This document shows positions 1 through 33,572 of a stretch of DNA of 64,000 bases, one piece after another. How positions within the stretch are numbered: the stretch's first letter is position 1; every line of letters starts with the position of its first letter. The DNA is taken from assembly GCA_048213135.1 (NCBI GenBank), contig PS015039.1, positions 180,619 through 244,618 on the forward strand, written 5' to 3'. Source of the stretch: Reclinomonas americana ATCC 50394 (lineage: Eukaryota). Under the pieces are notes generated by a model. The model ran no database searches. It was not told the origin of the DNA and saw only the letters and a program-made list of their open reading frames with translations. A program made the position numbers and the translations under genes.

Positions 1-3000
1 AGTCGTCATCGCACCCACAACACTGTTTGTGCCCGTCGTCGGCGGCGTGTATACCGTCGACGACAGTGCAATGTTGGTCGGTGCCACAGGAACTGCACAG
101 CCGCCATGAACTGTTGAGCAACAGCTGGCGACACATACACACATGCAGACACCCACAACCCACCGTCATTCACAGTGAACGACTTGTCAAACGTCGCACC
201 ACCGCTGTCCGTCGTGCGAATCACCACCACGAGTGCAGTTCCCGTCTGTCCATTCGCACTTAAGCGTAACTGTGTCCCGCTCACATTGAACAGCGCCTGC
301 GCAGCGCCGCCGACCACCGAGTACACAAACGTCTCGCCCGTGTTGGCGTCCGTCGAGCTCAGTGTGCCAATCACTGTGTTGACCATGCTCGTCGGCGGTG
401 TGTACGTGTTCGCCGACAGCCCGATATTCGTCGGCGCCACATTGCCTACAACACACGGCAGAGTCAGCTGACTGCATCGTGATTCCCAAACACAAGCTGC
501 GGCACGCACTCTCGTTGAACGTCAGTGTCTTGCTCACGCTGCCGCCGTGTCCGTCGTCCGACGTGATCGCCACTTGCAGACCGTTGCCAGACAGGCCGCC
601 GCCACCCACATTCGCCATCAGTTGAGAGCCACTCACACTGAACTTGCCGCTGTCGGCACCGCCACTGATCGTGTACGTCGGCGTCTGGCAGCAGTTGGCA
701 TCCACCGTCGACAGCGTGCAAATCACACTTCCCAGTGTGGCCGGCGGCACATATGTAGTCGAGCTGCAGCTGATGTTGGTCGGCGCAACGTTGGCTGCGT
801 GCATATCACAGTAAGTCAGTTGATTGTGTGTGTGAAACAGGGAAGGGAGAAGAATGATTCTCTTTCCATTTCTCTCTTCCTCTCTCCTCCTCACCTTCAT
901 CAATCACAAATGTCCGATCAAATGTCTGACTCGTGCTATCCGTCACTCGCACCGTCACCGTCAGGCCGTTGCCAGTCTGGCCGGCGTTGCGCAGCACCAG
1001 ATTGTTGCCGCCTGCAATGTTGAACAGCGCGGCATTGGCGCCGCCTTGCACACTGAACGTGAAGGTGTCGCCCACATTGGGATCCACGCCACTCAGCACG
1101 CCCACGACTGTGTTCGCTGCCGCCGTCGGTGGCACGTACGTCACCGACGTGATCAAGATATTGGTGGGTGGCTGGGGTGCTGTGTGTGTGCGCATGCATG
1201 AAGAGTGTCAGGAGAATGCAACAGGCAACCTCAGACGAAAGGGAGAACGCAACTGTCGGTGATGGTGAATGTTCTCTCGAAGAACAGCGCCCCGGTGCCG
1301 TCATCGGTCGTGCGAATCACCACTTGCCATCCTGTGCCAACCTGTCCGTTGGCGGTGATGCGCAACTGGCTGCCAGAGATGTTGAAGAGAGCGGCGTTGA
1401 CGCCGCCGGTGATGGTGTAGGTGAACGACTGGCAGCAGTTGACATCGGTGGTGGACAGTGTGCCGATCACAGTGTTGGCCATTGTCGTTGGCGGACTGTA
1501 CGATGCTGACGAGAGTGAAATGTCCGTCGGTGCAACGTTCACTGCGAAACGCGCAGTGAGCAGAGATGGCGACCGCAAGTTATCACGAGGCAGGGAACGT
1601 ACCTTCGCTGAACAGGAACGTCTTGTTGAAAGTTCCACCGTGCAAGTCGTCGGTCTTCACAGTGACTTGCAAATTGTTGCCGGTGAGATTGGCAACGGCG
1701 CTGCGCAGCTGGTTGCTGTTCACCTCGAACTTGGCCTGATCCGCGCCACCGATTATCGTGTACACTGGCGACTGGCAACAGTTGACATCCGCAGTTGTGA
1801 GCGTGGCCAACACGCCGTGCAACCCGGTGTGCGGTGTATACAGCAGCGTAGACGGAGTGATGTCCGTCGGTGCCACATTGGCTGCAAACGGCAACCGAAA
1901 CTTTAGCGCACGTGTCCAAGCAATCAATCTCAAGCACGTGCTCAACAAACCTTCGTCAACGGTGAATAATTTGGTGAAAACAAGACCGCCACTGTCAGTG
2001 ACGCGAATCTGCACTTGCAATCCGTTGCCCGTCTGACCAGCAGATGTGAGCTGCAGTTGTGCACCCGAAATGTTGAATAGGGCCGCACTGGCGCCGCCCA
2101 CGATCGCAAATGTCGCAGTGTCACCAGTATTATTGTCAACCATCGCCAGTGTACCCACACCGCTGTTGGCAGCCGCTGTGGGTGGCGTGTATGTGCTCGA
2201 TGATAGAGTGATGTCGGTCGGTGCAACGTTTGCTGTGAGTAGCGAGTAAGAAACCGACAATGTAGGCCTTCAAAAAATACAGCGCAGCTGCCACACGAAC
2301 CTTCGCTAATTGAGAATGTCTGGCTATACACCCCGCCATGGCTGTCGTCCGTCTGTACTCGCACCAGCAAATTGTTACCCGTCAAGCCAGCGCCTCCTTG
2401 CACGGCCACGAGCTGGTTGCCAGTGATAGAGAAGCTGCTTGCATTTGCTCCACCGGTGATGCTGTAGGTAAAGCTCTGGCAGCAATTGGCATCCGTGGTC
2501 GTCAAGGTTCCAACGACAGTCCCCGAGGGTGCGGGCACAGGGGTGTACAGAAGCGACGACAGAGCGATGGCCGTGGGGTCAACATTGGCTGCGGCAATGC
2601 GAGACCGGAAGTGAGAATGAGAAAGGAACACAGCGTGCAGTGCAAGTTGACGAGCAGCACCAACCTTCGTCAAGAACAAACGCCTTGCTGAATGTTCCAC
2701 CAGCTCCATCGTTGGTGCGAATGGTCAAATGCAAGCTGTTGCCGGTGAGACCATTCACGTTCGACATCAGCTGCGAGCCGACGATAGCGAACTTGGCGGC
2801 ATCAGCACCGCCAGTGATCGTGTATGTGAACGACTGACAGCAATTGCCGTCGGTAGTCGTCAGCGAGCCGATGACTCCGTTCAACGCCAGTGGTGGCGTG
2901 TAAGTCAGTGTCGACAAGGTAATGTCGGATGGGACGAGATTGACTGCGCGCACAATGTGAGCAACCAGCGCAGTCAGACGCACCCGACAGCCTCCACAAC

Positions 3001-3452
3001 GCAACTTTCGTTGATGTAGAATGTCTTGTCAAACGAGCCGCCGAAACCATCGGTGAGCCGCACAGTCACTTCGAGATTCATGCCGGTCAGACCACCCATT
3101 ACGTTTGTCCGCAGTTGAGCACCGGCGATCAAGAACTTGGCCATGTCCGCGCCGCCGACCAAGCTGAAAACAAATGTTTGACAGCAGTTTGCGTCCACGG
3201 CTGAAAAGTTGCCGACTGCCGTATTCGCGAAGGCCGGTGGTGTGTACGTCGTCGAGTCCAGCAGAATATCCGTGGGCGGCATGTTGGCTGCGCGTGTGAA
3301 CAGCGAGTGATACCACCATCAGCACCACACTTATCACACAAGCCCGCACACAAGCAGACAAACACACACGCTGCTCGCTGTCCCTCTCTCCCTCTCTCTC
3401 GCTCTCTGTACGCACACAAACACGCACCTTCAGAGAGCGTCAGCGTCTTGTT
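1..3452 (-). CDS. Fragment of cadherin-like repeat array (about 11 repeat exons, first and last partial); runs off the window to the left
   Basis: Repeated ~94-aa units NVAPT(D/N)IxLS..Y.PP....VGTL.T.D.N....FTY.I.GG.....F.I.G.QL.....G.TG.....VRTTD..G..F.K.FTI.E, each on one exon bounded by phase-1 GT-AG introns (donors at 3428, 3005, 2664, 2300, 1950, 1602, 1253, 894, 509, 163). Confidence 0.9.
3269..3452 (-). repeat. Copy 1 of a 184-bp block (exon end + 140-nt intron + exon start), inverted relative to 7424-7607
   Basis: Manual alignment of the reverse complement to 7424-7607: no indels, 6 mismatches; this copy ends at the N gap. Confidence 0.95.
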
Positions 3453-4424
3453 NNNNNNNNNNNNNNNNNNNNNNNNNNNNNNNNNNNNNNNNNNNNNNNN
3501 NNNNNNNNNNNNNNNNNNNNNNNNNNNNNNNNNNNNNNNNNNNNNNNNNNNNNNNNNNNNNNNNNNNNNNNNNNNNNNNNNNNNNNNNNNNNNNNNNNNN
3601 NNNNNNNNNNNNNNNNNNNNNNNNNNNNNNNNNNNNNNNNNNNNNNNNNNNNNNNNNNNNNNNNNNNNNNNNNNNNNNNNNNNNNNNNNNNNNNNNNNNN
3701 NNNNNNNNNNNNNNNNNNNNNNNNNNNNNNNNNNNNNNNNNNNNNNNNNNNNNNNNNNNNNNNNNNNNNNNNNNNNNNNNNNNNNNNNNNNNNNNNNNNN
3801 NNNNNNNNNNNNNNNNNNNNNNNNNNNNNNNNNNNNNNNNNNNNNNNNNNNNNNNNNNNNNNNNNNNNNNNNNNNNNNNNNNNNNNNNNNNNNNNNNNNN
3901 NNNNNNNNNNNNNNNNNNNNNNNNNNNNNNNNNNNNNNNNNNNNNNNNNNNNNNNNNNNNNNNNNNNNNNNNNNNNNNNNNNNNNNNNNNNNNNNNNNNN
4001 NNNNNNNNNNNNNNNNNNNNNNNNNNNNNNNNNNNNNNNNNNNNNNNNNNNNNNNNNNNNNNNNNNNNNNNNNNNNNNNNNNNNNNNNNNNNNNNNNNNN
4101 NNNNNNNNNNNNNNNNNNNNNNNNNNNNNNNNNNNNNNNNNNNNNNNNNNNNNNNNNNNNNNNNNNNNNNNNNNNNNNNNNNNNNNNNNNNNNNNNNNNN
4201 NNNNNNNNNNNNNNNNNNNNNNNNNNNNNNNNNNNNNNNNNNNNNNNNNNNNNNNNNNNNNNNNNNNNNNNNNNNNNNNNNNNNNNNNNNNNNNNNNNNN
4301 NNNNNNNNNNNNNNNNNNNNNNNNNNNNNNNNNNNNNNNNNNNNNNNNNNNNNNNNNNNNNNNNNNNNNNNNNNNNNNNNNNNNNNNNNNNNNNNNNNNN
4401 NNNNNNNNNNNNNNNNNNNNNNNN

Positions 4425-7400
4425 ACGGATGCGAATGTGACAGACACGTTCACGTACAGCATTGTGGGTGGAACAGATGCCGGGTCGTTCGATATTGTGG
4501 GCAGCAATCTGGTGATTCGGTCGAACGGATTCGGTGGAACCGGATTGCAGGTGCAAGTGAGGACGACGGACTCGGGTGGACTGACATTCAACAGGACGTT
4601 CACGATCAACGAGGGTGAGTGTAATGGTGTCTGTTGTGTGTGCGTATGAGAAGTTGGTTGTGCTGAACGGGTGCGTGCAGCGAACGTGGCGCCGTCGCAC
4701 ATCAACATCAGTAGCACGACGTACGTGCCGCCGACTGCGACGACGAATGTTGTTGTGGGAGCGCTGAGCACTGTGGATGCGAACTGCTGTCAGACGTTCA
4801 CGTACAGCATCACTGGTGGCAGCAATCAGGCGCTGTTCAACATCAGTGGGTCGAACCTGCGACTGAATGCGGCGGGCCAGACGGGGAACAACCTGGAGGT
4901 GGAAGTGGAGACGAACGATGGCAACGGTGGAACGTATCTGCAGACGTTCTTGGTGTCGGAGTGTGAGTGGTCGAATGCGTTAGTACTTGAGTGCTGCCTG
5001 GTGAACTCACCCCTCGCTGCCGTCTACAGCCAATGTGATCCCGACTGATATTCTGCTGTCTGGGACGCGGTACACGCCGCCGACGGCGACGACGAATGTA
5101 GTCATTGGCGGCATGACGTCGATGGACGCCAACACCAACCAGATTCATGTGTACACGATTGTCGGCGGCAGCGACAGTGCGCTGTTCGACATTGTGGGAA
5201 CGAATCTCGTGCTTCGGGCGGCGGGCCAGAGCGGAACCGGACTGCAGGTGACAGTGCGGACAGACGATCAGGCAGGCGGCACATTTGACAAGACGTTTAC
5301 GATCTCTGAGAGTTGCGTGATGCGCGAGGGAAGTGAGATGGAGATCCTGTCGATATTCATGTTTGTGTGTGCGTGTTTGCACAGACAATGTGGCGCCGAC
5401 CAACATTGCACTGTCGTCGAACACGTACACGCCGCCGACTGCGGCGGCACACAGTGCTGTGGGAAGTCTGTCGACAACGGACGCGAACACGGGAGAGACG
5501 TTCACATACCAGATTGTGGGTGGAGCGGACAGCAGTGTGTTTGAGATTGCCGGATCGCAGCTGCGGATTGTTGCTGCTGGACAGCGCGGCACTGGCCTTG
5601 TGGTGGTTGTGCAGACGACAGACAGTGGCGGTGCGACGTTTGCGAAGCAGTTTACGATCAACGATGGTGAGTGCGGTTGATGATGATGATGATGATGACA
5701 TGTGGTGATCGTGGTGAAGATGGTACTTACGCTGTGTGCAGTGCCTGTTGGACCGACGGACATTTCGCTGTCGAGCAGTGTGTACACGCCGCCGACCGTG
5801 TCAACGAATACTGCGGTGGGCGCGCTGTCTGCGACAGATGGCAATGTGTTGGACACGTTCACGTTCACGATTCAAGGCGGCACGAATGGAGCTCTGTTCG
5901 ATGTTGTCGGGTCGAATCTGGTGCTGCGCAACAGCGGACAAGGCGGTACTGGACTGCAAGTGACGGTGCGAGTGACGGACAGCAGCGGGTTTACGTTTGC
6001 AAAGGCGTTTGTTGTGAATGAGAGTGAGTATTTTCTGAAGGACTTGCAATGAGCAGTGGGGAGTGGTGAGCTCACACATTGTGGACGTGTATACACACAG
6101 CGAATGTGGTGCCGAGCGACGTGGCGCTGTCGACGCTGTTGTATCCGCCGCCGCTGGGAATGAGCAGTGTGGTGGCGACGCTGAGCACGTCAGACAGCAA
6201 CTGCTGCCAGACATTTGTGTACACGATTGTCGGCGGGGCGGATCAGGCCAAGTTTGCGATTGTGGGCAGCCAGCTGCGGTCGAATGTGGCGGGACTGACG
6301 GGCAACAACCTGAAGGTGCAGATTCAGACGGACGATCAAAATGGTGGCACCCTGAGCAAGCTGTTCACAATCAACGAAGGTGTGGTGTTGGATTCTGCGT
6401 GTGTGAGCGAGCGAGAGAGAGGAGAGGGAGGCATTTGTACTGAACGGTGGAGATGCAGCGAACCTGGCACCGACGGACATTGTGTTGTCGAATGACACGT
6501 ATGCGCCGCCGACGGCGAGTACGAATGTTGTTGTGGGAACGATGACAGTGGTGGATGCGAATGGCAGCGACACGCACGTGCTCACGATCAGTGGTGGAGC
6601 GGACAGTGGTCTGTTCAACATTTCGGGGAATCAGCTGCGACTGAGTGCCAGCGGACAGACGGGAAGTGGATTCACGGTGATTGTGCGAGCGACTGACAAT
6701 AGTGGAGCGTTTGTGGAGAAGACATTTGTGATCACCGACAGTTGCGTGTGCATGTGCTGTGCTGTGGTACGTTGATTCTTTGTGCTGACTGTGTCGAGTG
6801 ATGCAGTTCCCGTGGCGCCGACGAACATTGTGTTGTCGTCGTCAACGTATGTGCCGCCGACGCTGCCAACGAATGCGGTAGTGGGGACACTGGTTGCCGT
6901 CGATGGCAATCTTGGGGATGTGTTCACATTTGCCATTACTGGTGGGGCGAATGCGGCTGCGTTCAACATTGCGGGCAATCAACTGCGGCTGTCGAACGTG
7001 GGACAGACTGGGAACGGGCTTGTGGTGACGATTCGCGTGACAGACTCAGCGGCGCTCACGTTCTCGAAGACGTTTACAGTGGATGAAGGTGCGTGGAAGG
7101 GGAAGTATGGAAAAAGAAGGGAGGGCGATGTCTGCTGACACGATTGGTGTGGTGTGGTGAGTGCAGCCAATGTTGCACCGACGGATGTGAGCATCAGCTC
7201 GACACTGTACGCGCCGGTACCTGCGCCACTGAACACGGTTGTGGGCACACTGTCGACGGTGGACGCGAACTGCTGTCAGACGTTCACGTACAGCATTGTG
7301 GGTGGTGCGAATGCGGCGTCGTTCAACATCAGTGGCAATCAGCTGCGGGTGAATGTTGCGGGACTGACGGGCAACAATCTGGTGGTCATTGTGCGGACGA

Positions 7401-10400
7401 ATGACGGTGCGGGTGGGACGTTTAACAAGACGTTGACGCTCTCTGAAGGTGCGTGTTTGTGTGCGTACAGAGAGCGAGAGAGAGGGAGAGAGGGACAGCG
7501 AGCAGCGTGTGTGTTTGTTTGTTAGTGTGCGGGCTTGCGTGATAAGTGTGGTGCTGATGGTGGTATCACTCGCTGTTCACATGCGCAGCCAACATGCCGC
7601 CCACGGACATCGCACTGTCAAACTCGTCTTACGTTCCGCCAACCACGGTCCCGCAAACAGCTGTCGGATCGTTGAGTCGAACCGATCCGAACACTGTGGA
7701 GACGGCTGTGTACACGATTCAGGGTGGAGCACATGCTGCGCTCTTCTCGATTGCTGGAACAAGTTTGCGCCTGGTCAATGTGGGGCAGGTCGGCACGAAC
7801 CTGTCTGTGACCATTCGAGTCACCGACTCTGGCGCACTGTGGTTCGACAAGACGTTTACCATTGTGGATGGTGAGTTGGCGTTCATGGTTGATGGTGATG
7901 TGGTGTTGGTGCTGACACACCACTTGTTCTGCGCAGTGAATGTCCCGGCCACTGACATTGTGCTGTCGGCTTCCACGTATGCGCCGCCAACGGCAGTCGC
8001 CAATGTTGTGGTCGGCACACTTTCTGCGGTCGATCCAAATGTTGGTGACACCCACACGTTTATGGTGAGCGGCGGCACCGATGCTGCCGTGTTCAACATT
8101 CTTGGCGCCTCGCTTCGCATCACTGCCGCCGGTCAGATCGGCACTGGCTTCCAAGTAGTCCTTCGCGCCGTCGATGCTGGTGGCTTGGCATTTTTCAAAA
8201 TGTTTACCATCACACAAGGTCGATAGCTGCGACTCATTTGCGTTGCTGTCGAGAATCGTCCTTACATCCGTGCGCTTACTCGCAGCACCGGTGCCACCCA
8301 CGAGCATTACTTTGTCCGCCACCACGTATGCTCCGCCGACACCTGGGGCCAACACGGTGGTCGGCACTCTGACTGCCACCGATCCGAATGTGGGTGATTC
8401 GCACACATTTTCGATTGTCGGCGGGGCCGATGCGATGCTGTTCAACGTCAGTACGAATCGACTGCGATTGACGAATGCGGGTCAAGTGGGCACGAATTTC
8501 GTGGTCATCGTACGCGCCACCGACTCTGCCGGCCTAACCCTGGACTTCAGTTTCACGATTACACAGAGTTACACGTCGTGCACTGCTCTGTGGATCTATT
8601 GATTTCTTGCCTCTGTGCTCACGCGACTGTGTTTTCGGGTGCAGTCAATGTGGCGCCAACCAACATTCTGCTCTCCACCAATGTGTACGTCTTCCCTACA
8701 ATGGCAGCCAACCAGGTTGTGTGCAACCTGACAGCAGTGGATGCCAATGTCGGTGATTCGCACACGTTTTCGATTGTTGGCGGTGCGAATGCTGCACTCT
8801 TCAACATCGCCGCCAATCAGCTGCGAATCAGTGCCGCCGGAAGTCGTGGAATGGGTCTCCGTGTGGATCTGCGTGTAACCGACGCAGCAGGTCTCTTCTA
8901 CGTCAAAGTCGGCGTCATCATTGATGAAGGTGAGGAAAGAGCGAGCGGCAGATGTCTGTGTGCGCGTGTTGATTGATGATCACATCTTGTGATTCGTTAG
9001 TGAATGTGGCGCCGACCGGTCTCGCCTTGTCGAATCGGCTGTACATTCCCATATCAGGGACCGCCAATTCTGCAGTGGGACAGCTGTCGGCCACGGACCT
9101 GAACTCGAACGAGGTATTGACATACTCAGTAGCTGGTGGGCCGGCCGCCAGCCTCTTTGATGTCCAAGGAACAAATCTGGTTGTCCGGTCGCCGACGCAG
9201 CAGGGCCTGAACTTGCAAGTGACACTGCAAGTGACCGACTCGCGTGGGCTGTCGCAGTCACAGTCGTTCACTATCACTGAAGGTTCCGTTTTTCGCTTTG
9301 TCCGTCATTGTGGTGCTCCGTTGGCGACTGACTCTCTTGGGGATTGTTGTTACAACAGCCAATGTGCCACCGACATCCATTGCGCTGGTGCACAACACGT
9401 TTGCTGTGGAACCCGCGGCGGTGGGCATGACGCCGTTTGCACGACGCGGAACCGTCATTGGACCGCTAGACGTCAGCGACAACAATTGTTGCCAGACGCA
9501 GACATTGACGATTATCGGCGGGCGATCTGGGTCGAAATTCAACGTCACCGGCTCGAATCTCGTGGTGGACGCAGACGACCTGGCTGGCAGCAATCACGAA
9601 GTGCAAGTGCAGACCAATGACGGCAACGGTGGAGTGTACGCGCAGAACGTGTACGTCTTCCAAGGTGCGTGTGTGCCCGTTGTTGTGAGCAGTGTTTTCT
9701 GTTGTGTTCCAACTTTTTGTGTGAATGTGCCGCAGATTTTGGTACCCAGACAGCGCGCATCGGCTCGGGAAATGCCTTTATTCGAGTGCGTGGAGAAATG
9801 CTCTGATCGAGATCCTGGTGTGCTCCCTTCCTCCTTCTCATCATGCTTTGCGCAGGGGAGCTTGTCTCGCAGCTTTGATGCCTCGCTACCGCTGACGCTG
9901 GACTTGATCATGGACGGAGTGGCGCCTGCTGATGTCGCAAAGATGACGTTCGAGTGGGGAATCTATTCGCAAGCGTTGCGTTGTGTCTGTGCGCGAGTTG
10001 GTATCCTGCCGTTTCTGATCGTGCAATTTGAAAAACAGGACCGGCTCACCTTCGGTCAAAGTCGCCTCGTTTGGATGGACACCAAGCGATGGTTTCGCGA
10101 TTATTCCAGCCAACTCATTCGTTCCTGGAGTCGCGTACGAAGCCGAAGCGTGGGTAACGCATCCGCTGACTGGACGAGGTGTGTTGTAGCATTACTTTCC
10201 ATTTGCCCGCAACCATTTGCGATGGAGCTGACGTGTCGTAATCTCGTTTCCGCAGTCCTCATTCGTCGTTTAATCACGGTCAATGTGCCGCCGACTCGTG
10301 GCATGCTTGTCTGTTCGCCGTCTGAGGGAGTGGAGCTGGAGACGGAGTTCGACCTGGTGGCCACTGGTTTCCAAGATCCTGATTCGCCAATGCCGCTGAC

Positions 10401-13400
10401 GTATACTTTCTTTGTGCTCGATCCCGAATCCAATCAGCAGGTGCCGTCATCCCCTGTCTGCCAGTCTCCCGCTGTATGTTGCTGTCTTACTTTGGTCTCA
10501 TTTCTGTGCGCCGCAGTTGACTCTGGGATCGGGTCCATCGGGCAAGGTCAGCGGGGTCAAACTGCAGCACTTGTGCCGCGCTCAGGATCAAGCCATCGTT
10601 GGTGTTACAGCGACTGATGTTGATGGTGGCCGGTGAGTCGTTCACGCACCTCCAATCTCTTGCCGACTTGCTGACTCTTTTCGCAGAACGTCGGTCACCA
10701 CTGTCATTACATTGCATCGCAAGATGTATGCCGACTCCACTTCTGTGCTAGCCGCAGTCGATACAGTGCTGTCGTCGGCCAGTGCCGTGAATATCACGGT
10801 GCGCGCTGAACAGTCATTGTTGATTGGCGTCGCCGTCCGTGACTCACTCTCATCGGTGCTGGTGCAGAGTCCTGGCGCCGCTTCAATTGTGTTGAGCACC
10901 GTGACAGCCAGTTTGTCTCTGCTGAGCGGCAGCAGCATGCTGTTTGGCAATAGTGACACTTCTCCAAGTTAAGTTGGCTGGCCAGCATTCTCGTCTCATT
11001 GATGTCATGCCATTGACGCAGCGGTGCACATGACAGTCGTTTCCCCTTCCGCCTTGACGCGCATGTCGGAGGTCGTGCTTGCCGCCAGCAGTCATGTGTC
11101 CACGGGCGACGGACTGGAATTGGCGTCGTTCGCCTCTGTGGTGAACAATGTGGCGAATGTGAGTGCATGGTGCCTCAATTATACTCTCTGCTACAGTCAG
11201 GAACTGACGTTCGTACCACGCCACACAGGTGACTAGCAGCTTACCAGCCGCCGACATGCAGGTCGTGCGGCAGAACCTGGTATCCGCGGCACGCGCAGTG
11301 GCGCAGAATCTGTCGGCATACCCGTCGACTGCTGCGCTGAGTGTGCGTTCGTGTCAGCGCGCGTCGTTCTCATTGCGTGCGAGGTGTAGTTAGCAGCTGA
11401 CCGATGTTTTGCTCTCTTGTTGTTGCAGTCACTGGCCGAGGCCGTGTCGACCATGCTTTCGCTGCCGACGACAGACGAAGCAGATGCGATTGCCACTCAG
11501 TGCGCCTTGGAGCCGGTGTTGAATCAGATCGCACATCGCACAGTGGCTGGACTGGTGAGTCTATTGTTGTGCGTTGAACATTGCCGTGCATGCTCACTTG
11601 GTGAGCAGACCGGGAAAGAGGGTGCGACAACGGTTTCAACGCCAAACTTTACGTTCCGAGCCCAAAAGGTGGACCCAACTGTGACATCGGCTTCCAAGGG
11701 AGCATACTCGGGTGAGCCACAAGCCCTTCAAATCGACAAGTGTCCTCGTGGAGTTCTCACCATATATTGGTTTCTCAGTGGCATTTGAGACGCTGACGTC
11801 TGCGCGCGGTTCTGATGCGCTGCAAACTCCACTTGTAGTCTTGCCGCATACGATAGGCCAGCGACTCGCCGGTGACGCTGATCACTTTAACGCGCTGGTC
11901 GAAGTGCGTCCTTTGGTTATGTACAGTGCATGTACAGTGATTTGCTAACTGTCCGTGCCCTCACAGGTGGGCTTTACTGGCGTGCCGATTGTCAATGCGA
12001 CCAACGACTACAATAAGAAGGCGCAACCGTCCAAGGTGTACGCATACTCGGTGCAGGTGTGCTTGACGACTGAGACATCTACTGCCAATCGTGCGAGTGT
12101 ATCTGACGCTTGCTGCGCAGAGTCCCGAAGACACTGTATCGGTAAAGGACGAGCAGGAGCCACTGGTTCTTGTGATTCCCGAGTGGCAGAGTGTGATTGG
12201 CCAGTACAACCAAACGTTTTCACGGATTGCCATGTGCATGTTGCAAAACTGCACCAATGCAAGTTGCGCAAATGTCACTATCGCAGACAGCGCTCATATT
12301 TGTGACTTACATCGCCGCTCCTTCGGTGCGCAGCGGAATCGGAGTATCGATTCAACGTGACCACCGCGGCGCCGATGATGATTGAGTTGCCGAATACGTG
12401 GATTCCACTGTGTGTCTCTCGCGACGTATGCAAGACCGGCAATCGGTTGAGTGCCACCGGACTAAGCACATACATTGTGGTGGAACCGATCGTGAGGGGC
12501 CAGCTACCGAATGTTGTGTGTTTGTGCATGCCTCTCTCACGGTGTTGCTGTGTCACTGACGAAGAGTGGAAACAGGTCACTGGCGTCTTTTGTGCCACCA
12601 GTCACATGACCGACTTTGTTGCGTTTCTTGTTGGTGTTTGCGTGGTGTGATCCAGTTGTGTTGAATAATCTTCATCGTCCATGCAGACGCTGGATCTGTC
12701 GATCCTGCCAAAGATCTCGTTCACGTTTGCCAGTCCGGCGGATGCCAATCTGATTGCGAAGCACAACGTGTTCCTCAGCCCAACGTTCTTCCTCCTGTGC
12801 ACATATTTTGTGCTGTTTGTGGTGACTGTTGTGGTCATGTGGCGTCGCGATCGCGCTCTGGACGTGGAGGTATGTCGCTGGCCTCTAGTCTCGGACACGC
12901 ACACAGACATTCCCTGCGTGCTTGTTCTCAATCATCATTCGCCCCATGAATAGGATGAAAGTGCGGTGCAGCAGCGCCACAAGTATCTGGCGCGGCTCGC
13001 TGAGCTGGCGGCTGTTCGTGATCGCGAAATGCAGGCTGTGGAGGCGAAAGTGGGGAGGGACGCGACGATACCTGCGACGGCACCCACGATTTCTGTTGAT
13101 GACGGCGATCACCTGCGAGAGAGGGTGCAGTCTCGACGACGTGGTCATCTACTGGGCGTGGCGTCATGGCTGCATGTACCCATGGAGTCCTCGTTCATCC
13201 TGCCCGCGCCACCTCCGGCAGTAGCAGACGACGGGTCAGAGCGTGTCGCTTCCGCCCGTCGCCGCATGTCGCGGTTCGTCGAGGAGCCAGTTGAAGAAGA
13301 AGAGGAGTCGCCGGTGCGCTCGGCTAGTCGGCGAGGAGACTTGCGGCCGATTGGATCCATGATCCGACACCAGGTTTGCACGACTCTTCGGACTCTTGTA

Positions 13401-16400
13401 AACTCACCCGCTGTGCTCACTTTCACGCTCTCTGCCCAGTCGCAAATGCCTCCCGTATCGCTTTCGGAGATTCCCCTCTTCCAGTTTTCCATGTCGTCGT
13501 CACCGGCGTTTGACTCGCCGTTATCTGGCCCCTCTACTCGTCTTTCGCCGTCGATCAGCGTGGCAGATACTGTGATTGGCGACGTCAAACTGCCCGGCAG
13601 TGTTGATCCAATGGCCAGCAATGCTGTGCTCACCTTTGAGGCGGATCTGCCGTCGCATCAATACCGTCCAGTATCCCGCATTAACTCGGTGTGGGACGGG
13701 CGTCGTGAGTCTCCCAGCGACGATGAGGTCGTCGAACGCCTTCGATCACCCGCTTTGCTCTCCACGTCACCCCTGCGAGTCGACTCACCGTCATTGTCGG
13801 CGGACGAATCTGAGACTGCTCCTCCTTGGCAGCGAAGTCAGCCACGTCGGCAGGTGCCGCGCCTTGCCAGAATGGATACTCTCACCTTTTCTGGGGATGC
13901 AAGACGTTCGCGAAATCGACGCGACAGTACGCAGATGTTGTTGGCGCACTCGTCTCGTCATCGCCGCAGTTTGTCATTGGAGGTCGACATTGCGCGGCGG
14001 GTTTGTGTTTACTGTGTCTGCGTGTGATGTGTGGTGATGAGCTAATTACCTGGTGGCGCAGAAAATGTCTACGGTGGTGCAGCGAACTAGTGACTCACCA
14101 TTCTCCGAGCACCACGATCAGCAGGATGCGGCATCGACGTGCTCTGCTGATAGTCAGGCACAATTGATTGGCCGGCGCATCAGTGACGACGCCACCTCGG
14201 ACACTGCTTCGCCAGCAGGCGCATCGCCCCGGGTCGGAGCCGACCTGCCGGCGAACAGTGCGGTGGTTCTGGTGGCGGAGCGCGAGGATCTAGTCCGCCC
14301 CAGTCGCCCACTGCGTCGCTTCCAGGCCGCTGTGCGCCGGGTGATTGCCCTTAGACGCCAGCGGTCCACAGCCGAGCGACTGAAGGAGCATGCTCGGACT
14401 CTGGCGCGTCAGCATCTGTGGGTGTCGGCGGTGATTGAACCACGCCGTGACACAACCGTACGACGAGTGGACAAAGTGCTGGTGAGTGGTGCTATACAGC
14501 TGTTGAGCGACGCGGGAACAGGGGGTGATTCTCACTCTCTGCTGCACAGTTGCTGTGGGTGGGCCTGGTGGCCAGTTGCTACGTCAATGCGGCGATGAGT
14601 ACCAGCAGTCAGAGTGTGGCGCTGACGATTGTGCATGCTCTTGGCGCTGCGGTTGTTGGTTAGTGTGCGACGACTGAGACTTGTATTCACCATCTGCTGT
14701 CGATTTTCTCACCGATCTCGTTGCGTCGCTGAGCAGGCGGACTAGTGGCTCTTCCTGTTGTCCTGTTGGTTGGCTGGATGTTCTACGTCACGCCGCGTCG
14801 CCTTCCGTCTCCGCCGTCCAAGACTCCTGACGAGGTCGACCTCTGTTGAGTGGATTGTTCTCGTTCTATGTTTGCAAATGTCGCGTTTTACTTACCTTTG
14901 CCAATACCGGCAGCACGTGTGCTTCTGAGTCAGTTGAAGGCTGCGGCCTTGAGGCGGCAGCAAGAAAATATTGAACTTACCGTATCCGCCGTCGACCGCA
15001 ATCCATCGGCGTTTGCGTCGGCACAAATCCAGCGAGTCGCGAGCAACGTGAGTGGACCTTGCTTCTTGATGCAGACTTTGTGGAAGCAAGCGTCCTCATT
15101 GTTTTTTTGGGGGCGGGGGCTACAGCTCGCACGACGCGGCTGGCTGCGTGACCGTCAGCCATTCGGCTTCACTATTCTCAGTGAACCGGACAGCGCCGGC
15201 GAATACTGCCTGTCGACCATGCGTTTCAGCTGGCGCGCACTTCCCGACAGTCGTCCAGTTACGTGTAGCTCTTGCTGCCTGCCCGAAAACACCGCAGCTG
15301 ACGGCGTTGGTTCCGTCCAGGTTACCGATGCTGCTGCAAGCCGCCCGCGCATCTGCGCTCCGCATGTGAACACACTTTTGCAACTTGCCCTCTGTGAGAC
15401 GTCGATGAACAATCCGCTCGGTGGATTCACGCTGTTTGCTCGAGCTTGGATTGTGCGTTACTGCCGTCTTGTGCCCTACCTCAGTGAGTATCTTTGTATA
15501 GTGCGTGCTGACATGATGCGTGCGTGATGTCACAGATCCAGTGCCAGGGTTTGCTGGAGGAACGCCTGGCTCCCTACAGTGTCATGCGCGAGTGCTACTT
15601 TGATTTGGTGGCTGCGTTCCTGCAGCATCAGCTATTCCGCTCCGATCAAGAGGAGTGGTGGAACACGGCTGCTCAGAAATCACCAGGTGCGATCAGACGC
15701 GCGTGCTGTGTGCACTAGAGTAGACAGGACTGGCCGCACCTGACTCTCTTTCTCTTGTCAACAGAAATATCGGCTCGCATTCAGGGTCTCTTCTCGCCGC
15801 AGCGTGCGACGGAAGCGGAGTTGCAGCGCATTCGTGACTCGGAAGATTACGTTTACATTGACGGTGCGGCGGATCCGCATGCGCTGCAACGACTGTTTGA
15901 CGAGCATCACGAGCAACTGCCAAGTGTGATTCTGCTGCGACCTGGCGTATACCCGCCGCTCAGCATTCCGGCCAAGTGCTGCACAAAAACTGGCGTGCTG
16001 ATGCTGGTTGCCTGTGAGGAGTGGCAAGCAGTGCTCCAGATTCAGGGGTCTGAGCTTGTATCGGCGACAGATCGCGTGGTACTGCGTGTGCAGTCGGCTT
16101 TGGCTGAGGGGTGGCGAGACGAGTGCGCATCGTCAGAGTCGTCATCGTCGGGCGTCCGTCACGGTGCCTTTGGCGGCGCCGCTCACTACGACGGTGCGGT
16201 GGCGCAAGTCAGAGACGTTCGCTGCCAAGTCGACAGTCAGAACGGCGAGCGACGCATGAGTTTAGCGGCACTGATACCACCGCCAGCGGGTGGTGCGTGG
16301 GAGTCGACGACACCGACATGCGATGACGACGTGGAATCACAGGTGAAGAGACAGTACTGCATTTCTCGCATAACTGATGAGGTTTTTCTGAATTTCGTTC

Positions 16401-17238
16401 ATCATCTAGAATGGGCGCTATCGACCAGTGGCCGAACTGCACATTCGTCACGTTGTTTTGGCGCACGACACTGCAGTCGGTTTTGGTTGTGGTCTCGGCG
16501 TGGAGTGTGATCCATCCACGTCAGCGCTCTTGTCTTCAGTTGCGTTCTCTTCTCCACTTGTCGATAGTGATCATCACATGCTAATCAACTCTCTCTCTCT
16601 CTCTCTTGCAAGCAGATGCGCAGCAGTTTGCCTCAAGGATTGTCCGAGATGATGGACCCGTCGCTGGTGGTGCTTGATGGCGTTCTGTTTGTGAATTGCG
16701 CCGATCCAGTATCGTGCACACCTGCGGTGCGCGATACACGTTCAGTGTTGGTGGAGCGACGGCACGGCACACGCGAGACGACGATGCTGCGTCCGACGGT
16801 CACTGCTAGCCGCCAGCAAATGGGCTATCGCGGTACGAGTTCGCTGGAGGAACTGTATTGGCGAGCGCGCTTGCGCGATTTGCCATACGCCTTGAAGATC
16901 GGTGGCCGCATCTTTTGTGTGCTTCTCGGCCTGTTCCTGTCGTACATGGTGCTGGTGACTATTGGAAAATTCCGCGACAACCAGGAAGACTGGAGCGTGG
17001 TGAGTGGCCGACGTTCTATTGTGTCGTGCGGGTCTGTGTACTGATCTCACTTCTCCCGTTGGATGCGCAGGCCACGACGTCGGTGCTCTCGGACGTGGTG
17101 CATGCATTCATATTGGAGCCGCTGCGGCTCATCGTTGGACAACTGATTGCTTGGGCGGCAATGGCTCTCCTGGCGCGCGGCATCACTGCGTTTGCGCGGC
17201 ACAAGGCTGCACACGAACCCATGCTTATTTACACATGA
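4425..17238 (+). CDS. Giant polycystin-1-like adhesion receptor: >=15 cadherin-like repeats + REJ + GAIN/GPS + 5 TM helices (5' end in gap)
   Basis: Repeat exons 4425-4614, 4681-4962, 5030-5311, 5385-5666, 5742-6023, 6101-6379, 6459-6740, 6807-7088, 7167-7448, 7589-7870, 7937-8218, 8286-8567, 8645-8929, 9001-9282, 9359-9664. REJ motif VNVPPTRGMLVCSPSEGVELETEFDLVATGFQDPDSPMPLTYTF (~10280-10410). GPS CATSHMTDF (12591-12617). TM1 ~12780-12842. PKD1-like HLWVSAVIEPRRDTTVRRVDKVL..NAAM (14410-14600), TM3 GLVALPVVLLVGWMF, TM4/5 LPYALKIGGRIFC..FILEPLRL. Stop at 17236-17238. Confidence 0.85.
7424..7607 (+). repeat. Copy 2 of the 184-bp block
   Basis: About 97% identical to the reverse complement of 3269-3452; contains the only long (140-nt) intron of this part of the array. 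Confidence 0.95.
12591..12617 (+). other. GPS autoproteolysis motif (H-M|T)
   Basis: C-A-T-S-H-M-T-D-F about 30 aa before the first TM helix; matches the C-x-x-x-H-(L/M)-(T/S)-x-F GPS consensus. Confidence 0.8.
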
Positions 17239-17306: not shown

Positions 17307-19031
17307 TCATGGGAGAGGCTGTACAAGGCGCGGCACCACACGCGGTCTCGCTCGCTTTGGTGCGCTCTCGTCGTCCACCGACATGGGCTGCACGGTGACT
17401 GGAGTTGCACTGCTTGCCAGTGGTGTCGCACTGGACTCAGCCTCGACACTCGTCTGTGCGCACTTTTCCACTCTCCGCTCCTCATCCTCCCGTCCCTCGT
17501 CCTCGTCGTCCTCATCCTCCTCAGCTGACGAATCCTCGTCGCACACAAAGGCAACGCGTGCAGGAACCTCCCCGCTTGATTTTGAAGCCTGCAAGTGCAC
17601 TGCGGACTGGTCAGCGGAGCCGTCTGCAGCCGCGTCGGCCATCCTGCGCACGGTGCACTTCAGATCATCACTTGCTCCCCCACATACGCACGCATTCACA
17701 CACAACACACAGGAGACCACACGCAACTCGACGTCTGGCACCACATCCGCAACGACACCGGAGGCCGATGCGGCGACAGTGGCCGCAACCGTGGCTCGCT
17801 TCCGACCGCCACCGCGCTTTCGCGTGGCGCCGCCCACCTTGGTGAAGCGCACGGCTTCCTCCTCGCGCATCTTACTCAAAATAGCATCTCGTTCTGCGTG
17901 GGCATTGATGGTCGGTGCAACAGTGTGACACAGAAGAGCAGAGCATGGAGGAAAGCACAAACCTTCGGCGGCAATGGGACTGCCGAGCTCGCCCTCCGCA
18001 AACGTCAAGAACGAGCAGTAGCCGTCGGAGCTCGACACACACAGCAGTCGACCGTCTGCGCTCCACGCCACGTCGGTGATGCTGGCGTAGTGCAGGTCGG
18101 TGGCGAACGCAATCGGCGACCAGTTCTGCGTGTCGTACACAAAGACGGCATTGACACTGGCGACAGCAAACACCATACGGTACGGCAGCGCCGCCATCGG
18201 TTGCACTTCGTCCACGTCGTCAGCGTCGTCATGCAGTTTGTGGTACAGCACGGGCGAGAAGCGCGCGGCCACAGTCACTTTCTGTCCCGGCAGCGGCAGG
18301 TGCAGCGCAGGGCGCGAGAATGAGTGTCGCGAGAAGACGTAGGTGGTGTGAACGAGTGGTCCATTCGGATCGTCCCGATACTGCGCCGTGGGCGCCAGCA
18401 TGATGGAGCCGTCGGGCGAGAAACACGGTCGACGGAAGAACGTGGCGATCGTTTCGTCGCGGAAGTAATTGTGTGCAAACTCACCGCCATTGTGTGTGTA
18501 CGCTCGTCGCCGCACATTGTGAGTGCAGGCGTACGCGAGACGACCCTACACGTAAACGTGTGAGACGGCGAAACAGCAGACAATGCACCACCAGCCAACT
18601 ACGGAGCGTACCTTTTGCGCCGAGGTCACCGAGCGCGAGTAAACGCGGAACCCACGATCGGATGACAGGGAGAGCAGCATGGTATCCAGTGGATCCCACG
18701 CCACACCCTGGACATAGTGCGACGCCTCTGTCAGTCGCAGCAGCGACTTGCCTGCGCAGAAAGAGTGTCACACAGTGTTTGCCATTTGCGCAGCTGACAC
18801 ACACCACACCTTTCTCCGCATCCCACACAATCACCGTGTTGTCGATGGAGCCGGTGACCAACTTGGTGCCGTCGGGTGACCACGCCACGTCGTACACATC
18901 GGCCGAGTGTTCACTCAGCATCTTCCCGTTGTCCCAGCTCTCCTTGTTGTCGGAACCGGCCTCCGGAGGTCGCCCAGTCAACCGGTACACAAACACAGCG
19001 TGATCGTCGCCGCACGAGGCCAGTCGATCGT
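17307..19031 (-). CDS. CHAF1B: Chromatin assembly factor 1 subunit B (p60/Cac2), WD40; 5' end in gap
   Basis: HSADVYDVAWSPDG, FRDETIATFFRRPCFSPDGS, LPYRMVFAVAS..VYDTQ..LHYASITDVAWSADG..SSSDGYCS; C-terminal RPRVVP resembles the Asf1-binding B-domain. Confidence 0.9.
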
Positions 19032-24451: not shown

Positions 24452-24536
24452 CAGGCAATAGTCGTCAATAACCAATTGTTTGTTAATGAATCATTGTGTA
24501 TTTGCCATGTCTCGTGTGATCGCTCGCGCGCGTGTA

Positions 24537-27500
24537 CTATCGCGACGAAGACGCGCCTCCGGTGGCGGCAACTGCTGTTGCCGTTGTGGTGGTCGTCGTT
24601 GTTGAGGCGGTCTTGGGGGTAAACATGGAGAAGAGCGAGCTCATTTGCACACGCTGTCGCTCACTCTTCTCAATGTAGCCCGTCACAAACTCGCGCAGCC
24701 TCTTGAGCTCGTCGGCGTCCGTCGGCGGCCGGAATGTGCCCTTGGCGCCTGGTCTCCGCCCTGCCGCCGTCTCTTGCATGTGGCGCTCGGCAGCGGTGGC
24801 GTCAAACAGATGCCGCAGGTATTCCAGCTGCAGCGCCACATCCGTGTCGGTCACGCACCGCTTCACCTCCGGCTTGCGGTGACGGAAATCGGCCAGCGAC
24901 AGCTGTCGCGTCTCGGTCTTCTCCTCGTTGCCGGGCGTGGCCGAATATACCACGCAGCGGTAGTACTCTTGCAGCAGGTCGCGCACCATGCGAGTGATTT
25001 GGTTGGCGATCGGCGCGAATGGAATGCCCTTCAGCACGCACGGAGATTCGAGCTGCGGCGTGACGCGGGTGAGACATCCTGCACATCTCTCTTTCCTGGC
25101 AACAACAACAAACGCACCGGATCCGAGTCCATCTGCTCCTGCAACACACCCTTGATCGGGTGCACCGAGCCATTCCAGCGCACCTCCAGCGGCTTGCATC
25201 GCCGGTACCGCTCCGCCGGTGCGGCAAGTGGATCGTAGGCATACTCGTCGCGACCGGTCGTTGACGAGGCGTGCACGGTAGACGGCAAGCCGAGGTACTC
25301 GGCCAGCAGCGCGCTATCGGTGCCCTCAATCGGACCACACAGGCGCTCCACGGGCGGATACACTTGTTGTGCCAGGTACCTGCGTGCACCACACGTGAGT
25401 GGTTCTCCGAAGAGGAAATGGCTCTGTGCTGCACCCCGCACCATTCATAGTCCACTGTGTGCTGTCCGACCACCTCCTCCGGGTGGTAGGAGCGATCGGC
25501 AATCGGTGTGTTTGGCGTCGGTGCCATGCACACCACGTACGGAATGCGCAGGCCAACGTGCACCGGCACGTTCTTGGCCAGCATGCGCTTCGCCACCTGC
25601 ACGTGTGGCAGATTCTTGCCGTCCGGGTAGTCGTCGACCGCCTGCAATCAAGATATTGAGTTGTCTCCCATGGGTGCGAAAGAAGGATGAAGTGAGCATG
25701 CCGACCTTGGTGAGACTCTTGGAGATGACAAACTGCTCCAGCGGCACCGTCACCACGGGCGACCGCAGCTGTTCACCGAGCTCGCGCAGCAGGCGATGAA
25801 TGTTCGACACCACCTCCTCTCGCGGCTTCTTCGACAGCAGCTCACTCAGCACTTTGCTGCGCGGGATGCAAACAAAAACAACAACGACAATCAGTTCATC
25901 GCTGCCGCGATGCGCGACGCATGCGTGGGAAGAGAGCAACGGAACTTGGAGATGATTTGCGACAGCGGGCACCAGTCGCGACGGACCATGTCCAAACCCT
26001 TGACCTCCTTCTTCTCCACCAGCGTGCCGTCCGGCATCTCCGTAATCGTCACTGCGGCGTACTTCTTCTTGCGCAGCAACAGCATGCGGGAGAAGATGCC
26101 GTCAATCTCAATCTCCAGATGCGTGTACCGCTGGTTGACCTCCTTCTTCACTTCGTTGCCGATCTTGCGCGCCTCTGCCAGATCCGTGGTGTGCGTGTTG
26201 ATCATGACCGAGTCGGTATCGCCGTACACCACCTGGGCGACACAGTCAGCATCAACCAATTGTTTCGCCTTTGGCCGAAGTGCAGCCCTNNNNNNNNNNN
26301 NNNNNNNNNGAGCACAACATTTGCTTCACCACGGTCCGCCGACCCAAGCGCAACGAGGTGGGGTGCTCGTTGAAGTGGTGGGTGTGAGTTTCACAGTTTC
26401 GTGCTCACTTCCCCCTCTTCCTTGTTACGCAGGATGGCACATGGCAGCTGGCCGAGGTGCCGCGCGCCGAGGACTTGCTGGACACGGACGAGGAGAACGA
26501 CAGCGGCGACGAGGTGGAGGGTGCTGGGCCGTCGGCCAAGAGGCAGAAGCGTCGACAGCGCGTCAACCACAAGAGCGTGCTGCCGAATCTGATTCGCGGA
26601 CTCGTGGAGCGCCGTCGCCAAGTGAAGAATCTGCTGGCCAACGAGCGCAACCCGGCCAAGCGCGACCAGTACGAAATTCGCCAAAAGGCGCTGAAGCTGA
26701 CGGCCAACTCCATGTACGGCTGTCTCGGTTTCTCGCACTCGCGCTTCTACGCGCAGCCGCTGGCCGAGATCATCACTCGCCTCGGTCGTGAGGCCCTGCA
26801 GCGCACCGTCGATTGCTGCACGAACGAAATGGGACTGGAGGTNNNNNNNNNNNNNNNNNNNNNNNNNNNNNNNNNNNNNNNNNNNNNNNNNNNNNNNNNN
26901 NNNNNNNNNNNNNNNNNNNNNNNNNNNNNNNNNNNNNNNNNNNNNNNNNNNNNNTACGTGAGGCCCTTGGCGGAGCCGTAGTACGCCTCGTACGTCGGCA
27001 GGTCGCTCTCGATAATCTGCCAGAAAGGGTGAGTGTCGACAACCACCAAAAGTGGCCCGGCGACGAAGCGCAAACCTGTCGCGTGGTGCCGAGTTGCGTC
27101 ACTGCCAGCTCGTTCATGCTGTACGACTTTTCGCGCAAATGTTCCTGCGAAAGAGAACGGCACGCACGAGTGAGGGAGGATCAACAGAGTTGCGCGTGCA
27201 TGCAAATCAGCACGCACTCGTGCAGCCAGGTATGTGTCGAGCACGAGACGACCGCTGGTCACGGCCTTCTCGGCCCACGTCGACTCACGCGTGCCACCGG
27301 CGCCAGTCTGCAGCTTGGGGAACCTGCGCAAGGCAGAGTGAGACGGCACGACAAGAGCAAGGCGCACGCAACGCACGCAACTCCTTGCGCTTCAGTCGTC
27401 CGATCTTGTGCCACCCAGGCACCTTTAGCGCCTTGCACCGATGCAGCAGCACGTCGAGATCGAAGCCGATGAAGTTGTGGCCCACAATGACGTCGGGATC

Positions 27501-33143: not shown

Positions 33144-33572
33144 GTCTCTCTAAAGAAGAACAAAAGTATCACTGTGTTTTCATCGTCCACTCCAATCAAG
33201 CGAATCACACTTTGGTGGTGGGCGCTCAGACGAGGTGAGGTCACGCGCGCTAGTGTGCATGTACACACAGAGAGAAGAGAAAGACGCGCGTGCACACAGG
33301 CACACTGACAGAATGAGCGATTGATGATTTCTTGTGTGTGGAGAGAGTGGCGGGAAGATGGAAACAAATTCGCAGTGTCGCAAGAGTTTAAAGAAAAATG
33401 CAATTGTGTGTCGCAGTGTCGAGTCGCATGTGTAGAAAGTGTGTCGATGTGAGTGGAGAATGCGCGTGCGTGCGTTGTGTGTGCGTGCGTAATGGCCATG
33501 TCAACACTTGCCCCACACACACAAACGCAAGCGAGTTGTCTCTCACTTTGTGTTTCTGTGATCACGCAGAGC

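Follow-up and report, generated by a model that had tools for sequence, protein, structure and literature searches.

The gene at positions 4425 to 17238 of the forward strand of the window, by which we mean the whole stretch of 64,000 nucleotides that was analysed (C31:180619-244618), encodes a protein with a signal-like segment, dozens of cadherin-fold repeats, a REJ module, a GPS motif and five helices of the polycystin-1 (PKD1) type, and it has neither a PLAT domain nor a TOP/TRP half. We give an about even chance to the explanation that this is a giant self-cleaving adhesion or force-sensing receptor, belonging to a family in which the front half of PKD1 stands alone, and that it signals by way of a domain in the loop between TM3 and TM4 and not through a PKD2 pore.

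Gene model and repeat stalk

The window stems from a draft assembly of 108 Mb in 16,441 contigs of an intron-rich eukaryote, and the splicing of the receptor gene was modelled from its sequence. The model comprises 44 exons predicted to encode 3,226 aa in a single frame with no internal stop, its 43 introns are all of the GT-AG type and 54-140 nt long, and the stretch from 4425 to 17238 is free of sequence gaps. Alignments to paralogs placed one donor at 15453 and an additional exon at 16410-16519, and the profile, helix-count, loop-conservation and shuffle tests described below were run on a 43-exon version that differs from the present model in loop 2 only. All motifs named in an earlier note on this DNA were recovered on the plus strand at the places given for them, i.e. 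HMTDF at 12603-12617, HLWVS at 14413-14427, NAA at 14586-14594, LVALPV at 14742-14759, LPYAL at 16880-16894 and EPLRL at 17116-17130, and the stop codon (17236-17238) falls exactly the 35 aa beyond EPLRL that the note had estimated. A convergent gene of the CAF1B/HIR1 type terminates on the minus strand 68 nt past this stop, and there is therefore no room for channel exons 3' of the receptor. The gene had been taken to extend from 4425 to 17238, and while its 3' end is set by the stop codon and the convergent gene, its 5' end belongs some 11 kb to the left of window position 1.

Table 1. Features of the receptor locus, in window coordinates
Feature	Position	Strand	Basis
Inverted scaffold piece with 10 further repeat exons of the same array	1..3452	-	Comparison with the C269 copy
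15 cadherin-fold repeats, bacterial-adhesin type	4425..9664	+	Spliced model, fold comparison, repeat identity
REJ module, short form	9736..10632	+	Pfam PF02010
Putative GAIN domain body	10687..12575	+	Inferred from position between REJ and GPS
GPS exon with HM/T site	12576..12629	+	GPS-TM1 profile, E=2.5e-4
TM1	12783..12839	+	GPS-TM1 profile, hydrophobicity
Cytoplasmic loop 1 (TM1-TM2), at the place of PLAT	12840..14412	+	Composition, profile tests
PKD1-type pre-TM2 motif, TM2 and TM3, three exons	14413..14790	+	TM2-3 profile, E=7e-6
Cytoplasmic loop 2 (TM3-TM4), ~500 aa	14791..16879	+	Paralog conservation
TM4 and TM5, EP kink at 17116	16880..17190	+	HHalign probability 97.4, E=1.3e-11
Short tail and stop codon of the receptor	17191..17238	+	Spliced model
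3' portion of convergent CAF1B/HIR1-type WD40 gene	17307..18545	-	PF24105, E=6.7e-55

The stalk repeats are about 94 aa long and are encoded one per exon with phase-1 introns, the first of the 15 at 4425..9664 being cut by the gap that precedes it. In the copy of the gene on contig C269 the match to window positions 832-1 directly precedes the match to 4425 onward, and the reading frame is kept from position 1 to 4425; positions 1-3452 of the window are thus inverted in the scaffold. Another 19 repeats are found on the plus strand in the 10 kb left of the window, and beyond these lie some 350 aa of non-repeat exons and then, near C31:169,600, a segment that by eye resembles a signal peptide. 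The contig accordingly holds up to 44 repeats, some of which are probably counted twice, since the pieces are 95% identical. Copies on C107, C269 and C283 share 94-96% DNA identity with the gene over the array and the REJ-GAIN part, the arrays being variable, and some of these copies may be alleles.

The cadherin-like nature of the array, as proposed in the earlier note, is borne out by structure comparison, which finds the cadherin fold in the repeats. Against the animal cadherins of the structure table they show an identity of 10-23%, and against bacterial and archaeal adhesin repeats one of about 40%. Canonical cadherins carry the Ca2+ linker motifs xEN/PE, LDRE-like, DxD and DxNDN. The first three are found in none of the 48 stalk repeats, DxN is present instead in 44 of them, and DxN[DE] does not occur anywhere within the array of the window. 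Furthermore, the likeness to prokaryotic cadherin-domain adhesins such as WP_284689151.1 from a Chondrinema plasmid extends at about 40% identity across the whole repeat, but the Chondrinema repeat retains EN, DxD and FDYE motifs that are missing from all 48 of the Reclinomonas repeats. When a profile of the stalk repeats was compared with eight cadherin sequences, CELSR1 was matched weakly (E 0.02-0.24).

REJ, GPS, helices and cytoplasmic loops

The REJ module had likewise been claimed before and is found directly after the last stalk repeat, where PF02010 matches the exon at 10258-10440 with E=1.2e-10 (41.1 bits against a cut-off of 25). For the putative GAIN body that follows, profiles were built from three animal and 14 viral sequences, and beyond the GPS they matched nothing clearly, the values obtained being E 0.08 and a biased E of 0.01. 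The GPS itself has His(-2) at 12603-12605 and Thr(+1) at 12609-12611 and is degenerate in its upstream part. A GPS-TM1 profile built from five PKD1-family sequences matches model residues 1990-2090, with none of 300 shuffles scoring as high, which agrees with the GPS read as HM/TDF from the outset; the Pfam GPS model does not match the receptor's own GPS, and its cut-off is passed by three of six paralog pieces. GAIN-containing proteins are described as being cleaved at the GPS with the two halves staying attached (PMC7728438, PMC9672506), and by analogy the receptor would cleave itself at HM/T, its halves likewise remaining attached.

Five hydrophobic segments follow the GPS. A DNA pattern derived from the paralogs' pre-TM2 motif matched at least 120 metagenome stretches, and among the matches listed the motif lies within an open frame in 115 of 120. 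Five of these metagenome ORFs were scanned, and three of them carry PLAT, Polycystin_dom and PKD_channel while two are without a Pfam match. A TM2-3 profile made from 53 of the metagenome sequences matches model residues 2531-2614, a score attained by none of 300 shuffles. TM4-5 of the window taken alone gives E=0.11 against the animal profile, and the strong result for these helices (Table 1) requires the paralog profile, whose 11 rows, two of them partial, were aligned with a PKD1-family profile of 19 rows; three control profiles reached a probability of 0.5 or less against TM4-5. With GPS-TM1 and TM2-3 matched by profiles from 11-TM PKD1-family genes and TM4-5 aligned in this way, profile comparison shows the three regions of the receptor to be homologous to their polycystin-1 counterparts, and the assignment of the helices to TM1-TM5 of PKD1 was thus correct. 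What that account of the membrane part had missed is the loop of about 500 aa between TM3 and TM4 and the family-conserved domain within it.

The two loops behave differently. Loop 1 is 447 aa long, consists of 14% Ser, 13% Arg and 8% Pro and has no PLAT match, very much as anticipated in the description of some 450 aa of Ser/Pro/Arg sequence replacing PLAT, and its first 85 aa find three matches in 65 loci of the same genome, all of them in the near-identical copies. The segment of loop 2 around LRPGVY (15935-15952) finds 22 matches in 65 loci, among paralogs down to about 25% identity, and the conserved domain to which it belongs comprises a core at 15830-16105 as well as the additional exon mentioned above. 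Neither Pfam nor NCBIfam has a match to this domain, and the PDB has no convincing one. The PDB candidates sialidase and MS2 coat (E 0.007 for either) are mutually unrelated and were rejected, and a single-sequence structure prediction of the loop-2 exon gave a pLDDT of 40. The impression is that loop 2 may be similar to the N-cap found in right-handed beta-helices. The conserved domain is the foremost candidate for the output part of the receptor.

Absence of the channel half and competing explanations

Neither the PLAT nor the channel profile matches the receptor model. In 82 sequences from the genome, namely the window and 81 loci of which some are unrelated channel loci, both profiles found nothing, against 28 (PLAT) and 24 (channel) of 30 control loci, although these controls overstate the sensitivity, since they are closely related to the sequences behind the profiles and a number of them went into the PLAT profile. 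Together with the stop after EPLRL and the convergent gene, this upholds the claim that the channel half is absent. The genome furthermore holds REJ at 36 places from 59 candidates (31 above the cut-off), GPS at 39 places from 62 candidates and the TM2 motif at 18 places from 30 candidates, and in 40 paralog stretches the order GPS, TM1, TM2 motif, EP helix recurs where the sequence allows. The C75 paralog has a stop shortly past TM5, and those on C73 and C20 have one after a short hydrophobic extension. The paralogs reuse the REJ-GPS-5TM base, and the fact that the receptor belongs to a large family suggests that the front half of polycystin-1 can function alone.

In the signalling receptor that we favour, binding to or pull on the stalk would loosen or shed the outer part, acting through GAIN, the five-helix bundle would then change shape, and the signal would pass to the family-conserved loop-2 domain rather than to a PKD2 pore. 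The activation route proposed for PC1 involves the stalk, the TOP domain and the pore loop, and a G-protein motif in the C-tail (PMC9672506); it cannot apply to the present receptor, which has neither TOP nor the pore loop nor the G-protein motif of the C-tail. G-alpha genes are found at 27 places in the genome, and nothing ties any of them to the receptor.

It seems unlikely, albeit worth serious consideration, that the protein is instead an adhesin that can be shed or a structural anchor, its helices doing no more than tether a long coat or a fibre used for capture, while cleavage at the GPS serves release and not signalling. Such a role agrees with the great length of the repetitive stalk, whose repeats are of the bacterial-adhesin type, with the existence of four near-identical copies with variable arrays and with the lack of any known signalling domain in Pfam, NCBIfam and PDB searches, but around 950 cytoplasmic residues have been kept, the loop-2 domain is conserved in distant paralogs, and a single helix would presumably be enough as an anchor.

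A split polycystin, in which a PKD2/TRP-type channel from another gene would be the trans partner of the five-helix receptor, was among the options of the earlier note and appears improbable. The notion is attractive insofar as the TM1-5 block of PC1 is described as lying at the periphery of the TRP core (PMC7728438) and PC1 as being cut between TM5 and S1 (PMC9672506), and the assembly is fragmented and was searched exon by exon. No PKD2/TRPP partner was however found in it. PKD_channel (PF08016) gave one match among seven candidates, in a sequence that reads as a voltage-gated channel of the Ca/Na type, Polycystin_dom (PF20519) and PLAT gave none in genome-wide searches to which no positive control responded, and an animal TOP-plus-channel query gave none either. 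PF06011 has two matches, both under the cut-off, and Ion_trans occurs at 99 places. Eleven of these were inspected, and they read as CNG/K-like or IP3R-like channels, as a fragment or as a contig of bacterial appearance, with no TRPP channel among them. The genome search thus lends the proposed partner channel no support.

It is very improbable that we are dealing with an artefact, be it an 11-TM polycystin that was cut short or wrongly assembled, or an array and a membrane part belonging to separate genes, for although the scaffold is scrambled within the repeat array and the splicing is modelled, the receptor stretch is gap-free and in one frame, the convergent gene leaves 68 nt past the stop, the C75 paralog likewise stops after TM5 and intronless viral ORFs end in the same way. 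A chimera of CELSR and PKD1, or an adhesion GPCR related to CELSR/Flamingo, is hardly credible at all, since the cadherin-fold repeats and GPS shared within one chain and the weak CELSR1 match are set against five PKD1-type segments in place of the 7TM GPCR domain of CELSR, REJ in place of the EGF, LamG and HRM domains that CELSR has between its repeats and GAIN, and repeats closer to those of prokaryotic adhesins and without Ca2+ motifs. The likeness to CELSR/Flamingo is convergent, and the earlier idea of a Flamingo/polycystin hybrid has to be abandoned.

Relatives and comparison with known systems

GPS patterns were also found in giant-virus contigs, at 21 loci representing 16 distinct ORFs, while three further viral loci have no ORF with the motif in frame. 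Fifteen of the 16 ORFs end 500-570 aa past the GPS, with no PLAT or channel matches, and these 15 have five (10 ORFs) or four (5 ORFs) hydrophobic segments. Like the Reclinomonas receptor, the viral ORFs (L228-L231, L237-L251) have a GPS of the form HL/HM-T-D-F, a short PLAT-less loop between TM1 and TM2, PKD1-like TM2-3 and TM4-5 and a stop after TM5, but they differ in being about 1,000-1,400 aa long and intronless, in having much shorter loops and in the REJ module, matched in none of four scanned. Two TM2 patterns found nothing in the viral contigs. The viral profile matches animal TM4-5 with probability 68 (E 5e-5) and animal TM2-3 with E 0.002, and its match to TM2-3 of the receptor is weak (E 0.0035). 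The viral and paralog TM4-5 profiles barely align (probability 0.7), so that one common origin for the channel-less forms as a whole is no more than a possibility.

A full-length relative from outside the genome was found neither among 58 candidates nor in two sets of 8,000, one of which gave a single 142-aa match and the other none; because the protein searches were limited to 2,000 aa, this negative is weak evidence. The two matches in a representative-protein search are a paralog-like fragment of 145 aa and an unrelated repeat protein, the short profiles for TM2, TM5 and REJ failed to retrieve PKD1 in PDB sequence searches, and an Atlas search with TM4-5 gave scores of 0.82-0.83, under the useful range.

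The channel core of polycystin-1 does not include the TM1-TM5 block, and what the membrane core does is described as poorly defined (PMC7728438). Natural proteins with a GPS and TM1-5, and without TOP, pore loop and C-tail, allow one to ask what the block and GPS cleavage do alone, and the small intronless viral versions should be practical for structure work. The channel-less forms furthermore bear on the evolutionary assembly of the 11-helix protein, next to which the cadherin stalk, a local domain shuffle, is less important. Tentatively, and at rather less than an even chance, we would propose that REJ/GAIN and the five helices together form an ancient class of autonomous receptors in microbial eukaryotes, with members in giant viruses too, which signals free of PLAT and TRP, and that the 11-TM polycystin-1 of animals arose by its fusion to a PKD2-type channel; in the present genome this class would then have expanded to tens of genes, with no detected PKD2 and with an undescribed cytoplasmic domain as its output.

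In the literature searched (main texts, with few subscription journals) no paper on a PLAT-less family with TM1-5 only was found, nor any on giant-virus ORFs with a GPS and four to five TM segments, and the consulted parts of PMC13197933, PMC8846589 and bioRxiv 10.1101/153437 hold nothing on a PLAT-less five-helix family. It is acknowledged that GAIN domains also occur beyond the holozoan GPCRs (PMC12716839), and the sole other GAIN family named, in the relevant part of PMC11697300, is that of the PKD1-like proteins. Short sea-urchin REJ proteins share REJ, GPS and fewer than 11 helices with the receptor, namely one TM in SpREJ1, 8 and 9, two in SpREJ2 and six in SpREJ7, but in the pertinent part of that paper none is described with five helices or a cadherin stalk (PMC1934368). 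The brown-algal Ectocarpus protein Esi0130_0068, of 1,427 aa with REJ, GPS and 6-7 predicted TM segments in its last ~450 aa (PMC4700764), is likened here by description only; it is non-animal and has a small membrane part like the receptor, but it is without a repeat stalk. With the PKD1 family proper (PKD1, PKD1L1-3, PKDREJ and sea-urchin SpREJ3-6) the receptor has in common REJ, a GPS before TM1 and homologous TM1-TM5. Unlike that family it lacks PLAT, TOP, TM6-11 and the coiled-coil tail, its stalk is of the cadherin fold and not made of PKD repeats and lectins, and its TM3-TM4 loop holds a new conserved domain. The receptor thus resembles the front half of polycystin-1 but departs from the 11-TM family in two defining respects, PLAT on the one hand and TOP with TM6-11 on the other.

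Repeat array and N-terminal head of the receptor

In several of the scaffolds carrying the receptor gene, small contigs of the cadherin-fold repeat array are inverted or shuffled (in the window and in the retrieved stretches L018 and L021), and hence neither the order nor the length of the array can be trusted. A DxN motif followed by a Cys-Cys pair occurs in 18 of the 48 aligned repeats, and these pairs may form inter-domain or inter-chain disulfides. The receptor furthermore has a partly Cys-rich, non-repeat N-terminal head of ~350 aa; a Pfam scan of one of its exons gave no match, and no clear match to the other scaffolds checked was found among the matches listed.

Locations of the features discussed; names of the three neighbouring genes are presumed, from reading by eye
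Feature	Location	Strand
Inverted or shuffled array contigs	window 1-3452	
Repeats, with Cys-Cys pairs after DxN	window 4425-9664	
N-terminal head	L012 ~9100 to L011 1150 (C31 ~169,600-171,770)	
Presumed DNA polymerase alpha catalytic subunit	window ~24500-29300	-
Presumed diaminopimelate decarboxylase	window ~30100-32450	+
Presumed multi-bromodomain protein	window ~33500-38600	+
Giant-virus GPS-5TM-like ORF	L229:2724-6485	

Paralogs and ion channels in the genome

A TM4 exon resembling that of C75, a paralog stopping shortly after TM5, is found on six small contigs (L006-L010, i.e. C9145, C11089, C9719, C13191 and C4445, and also C5191), which suggests a collapsed or high-copy subfamily. The GPS paralogs in L050, L051, L057 and L065 (C11, C239, C469 and C3457) have diverged further, and their loops are very long and rich in Pro and Ser. 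A genome-wide channel search returned several multi-domain voltage-gated Ca/Na-type channels together with CNG-like and IP3R-like channels, and no TRPP-type channel was seen among them. The 539-nt contig L220 (C15608) holds an intronless, bacterial-looking K+ channel fragment, possibly a contamination.

Viral and metagenomic relatives

The giant-virus ORF contains a CUB domain (Pfam E 2e-8). The metagenome contigs L074, L129 and L131 carry intronless or almost intronless 11-TM PKD1-like genes, with a 12 kb open frame in L074 and ectodomains of >2,400 aa in L074 and L129.
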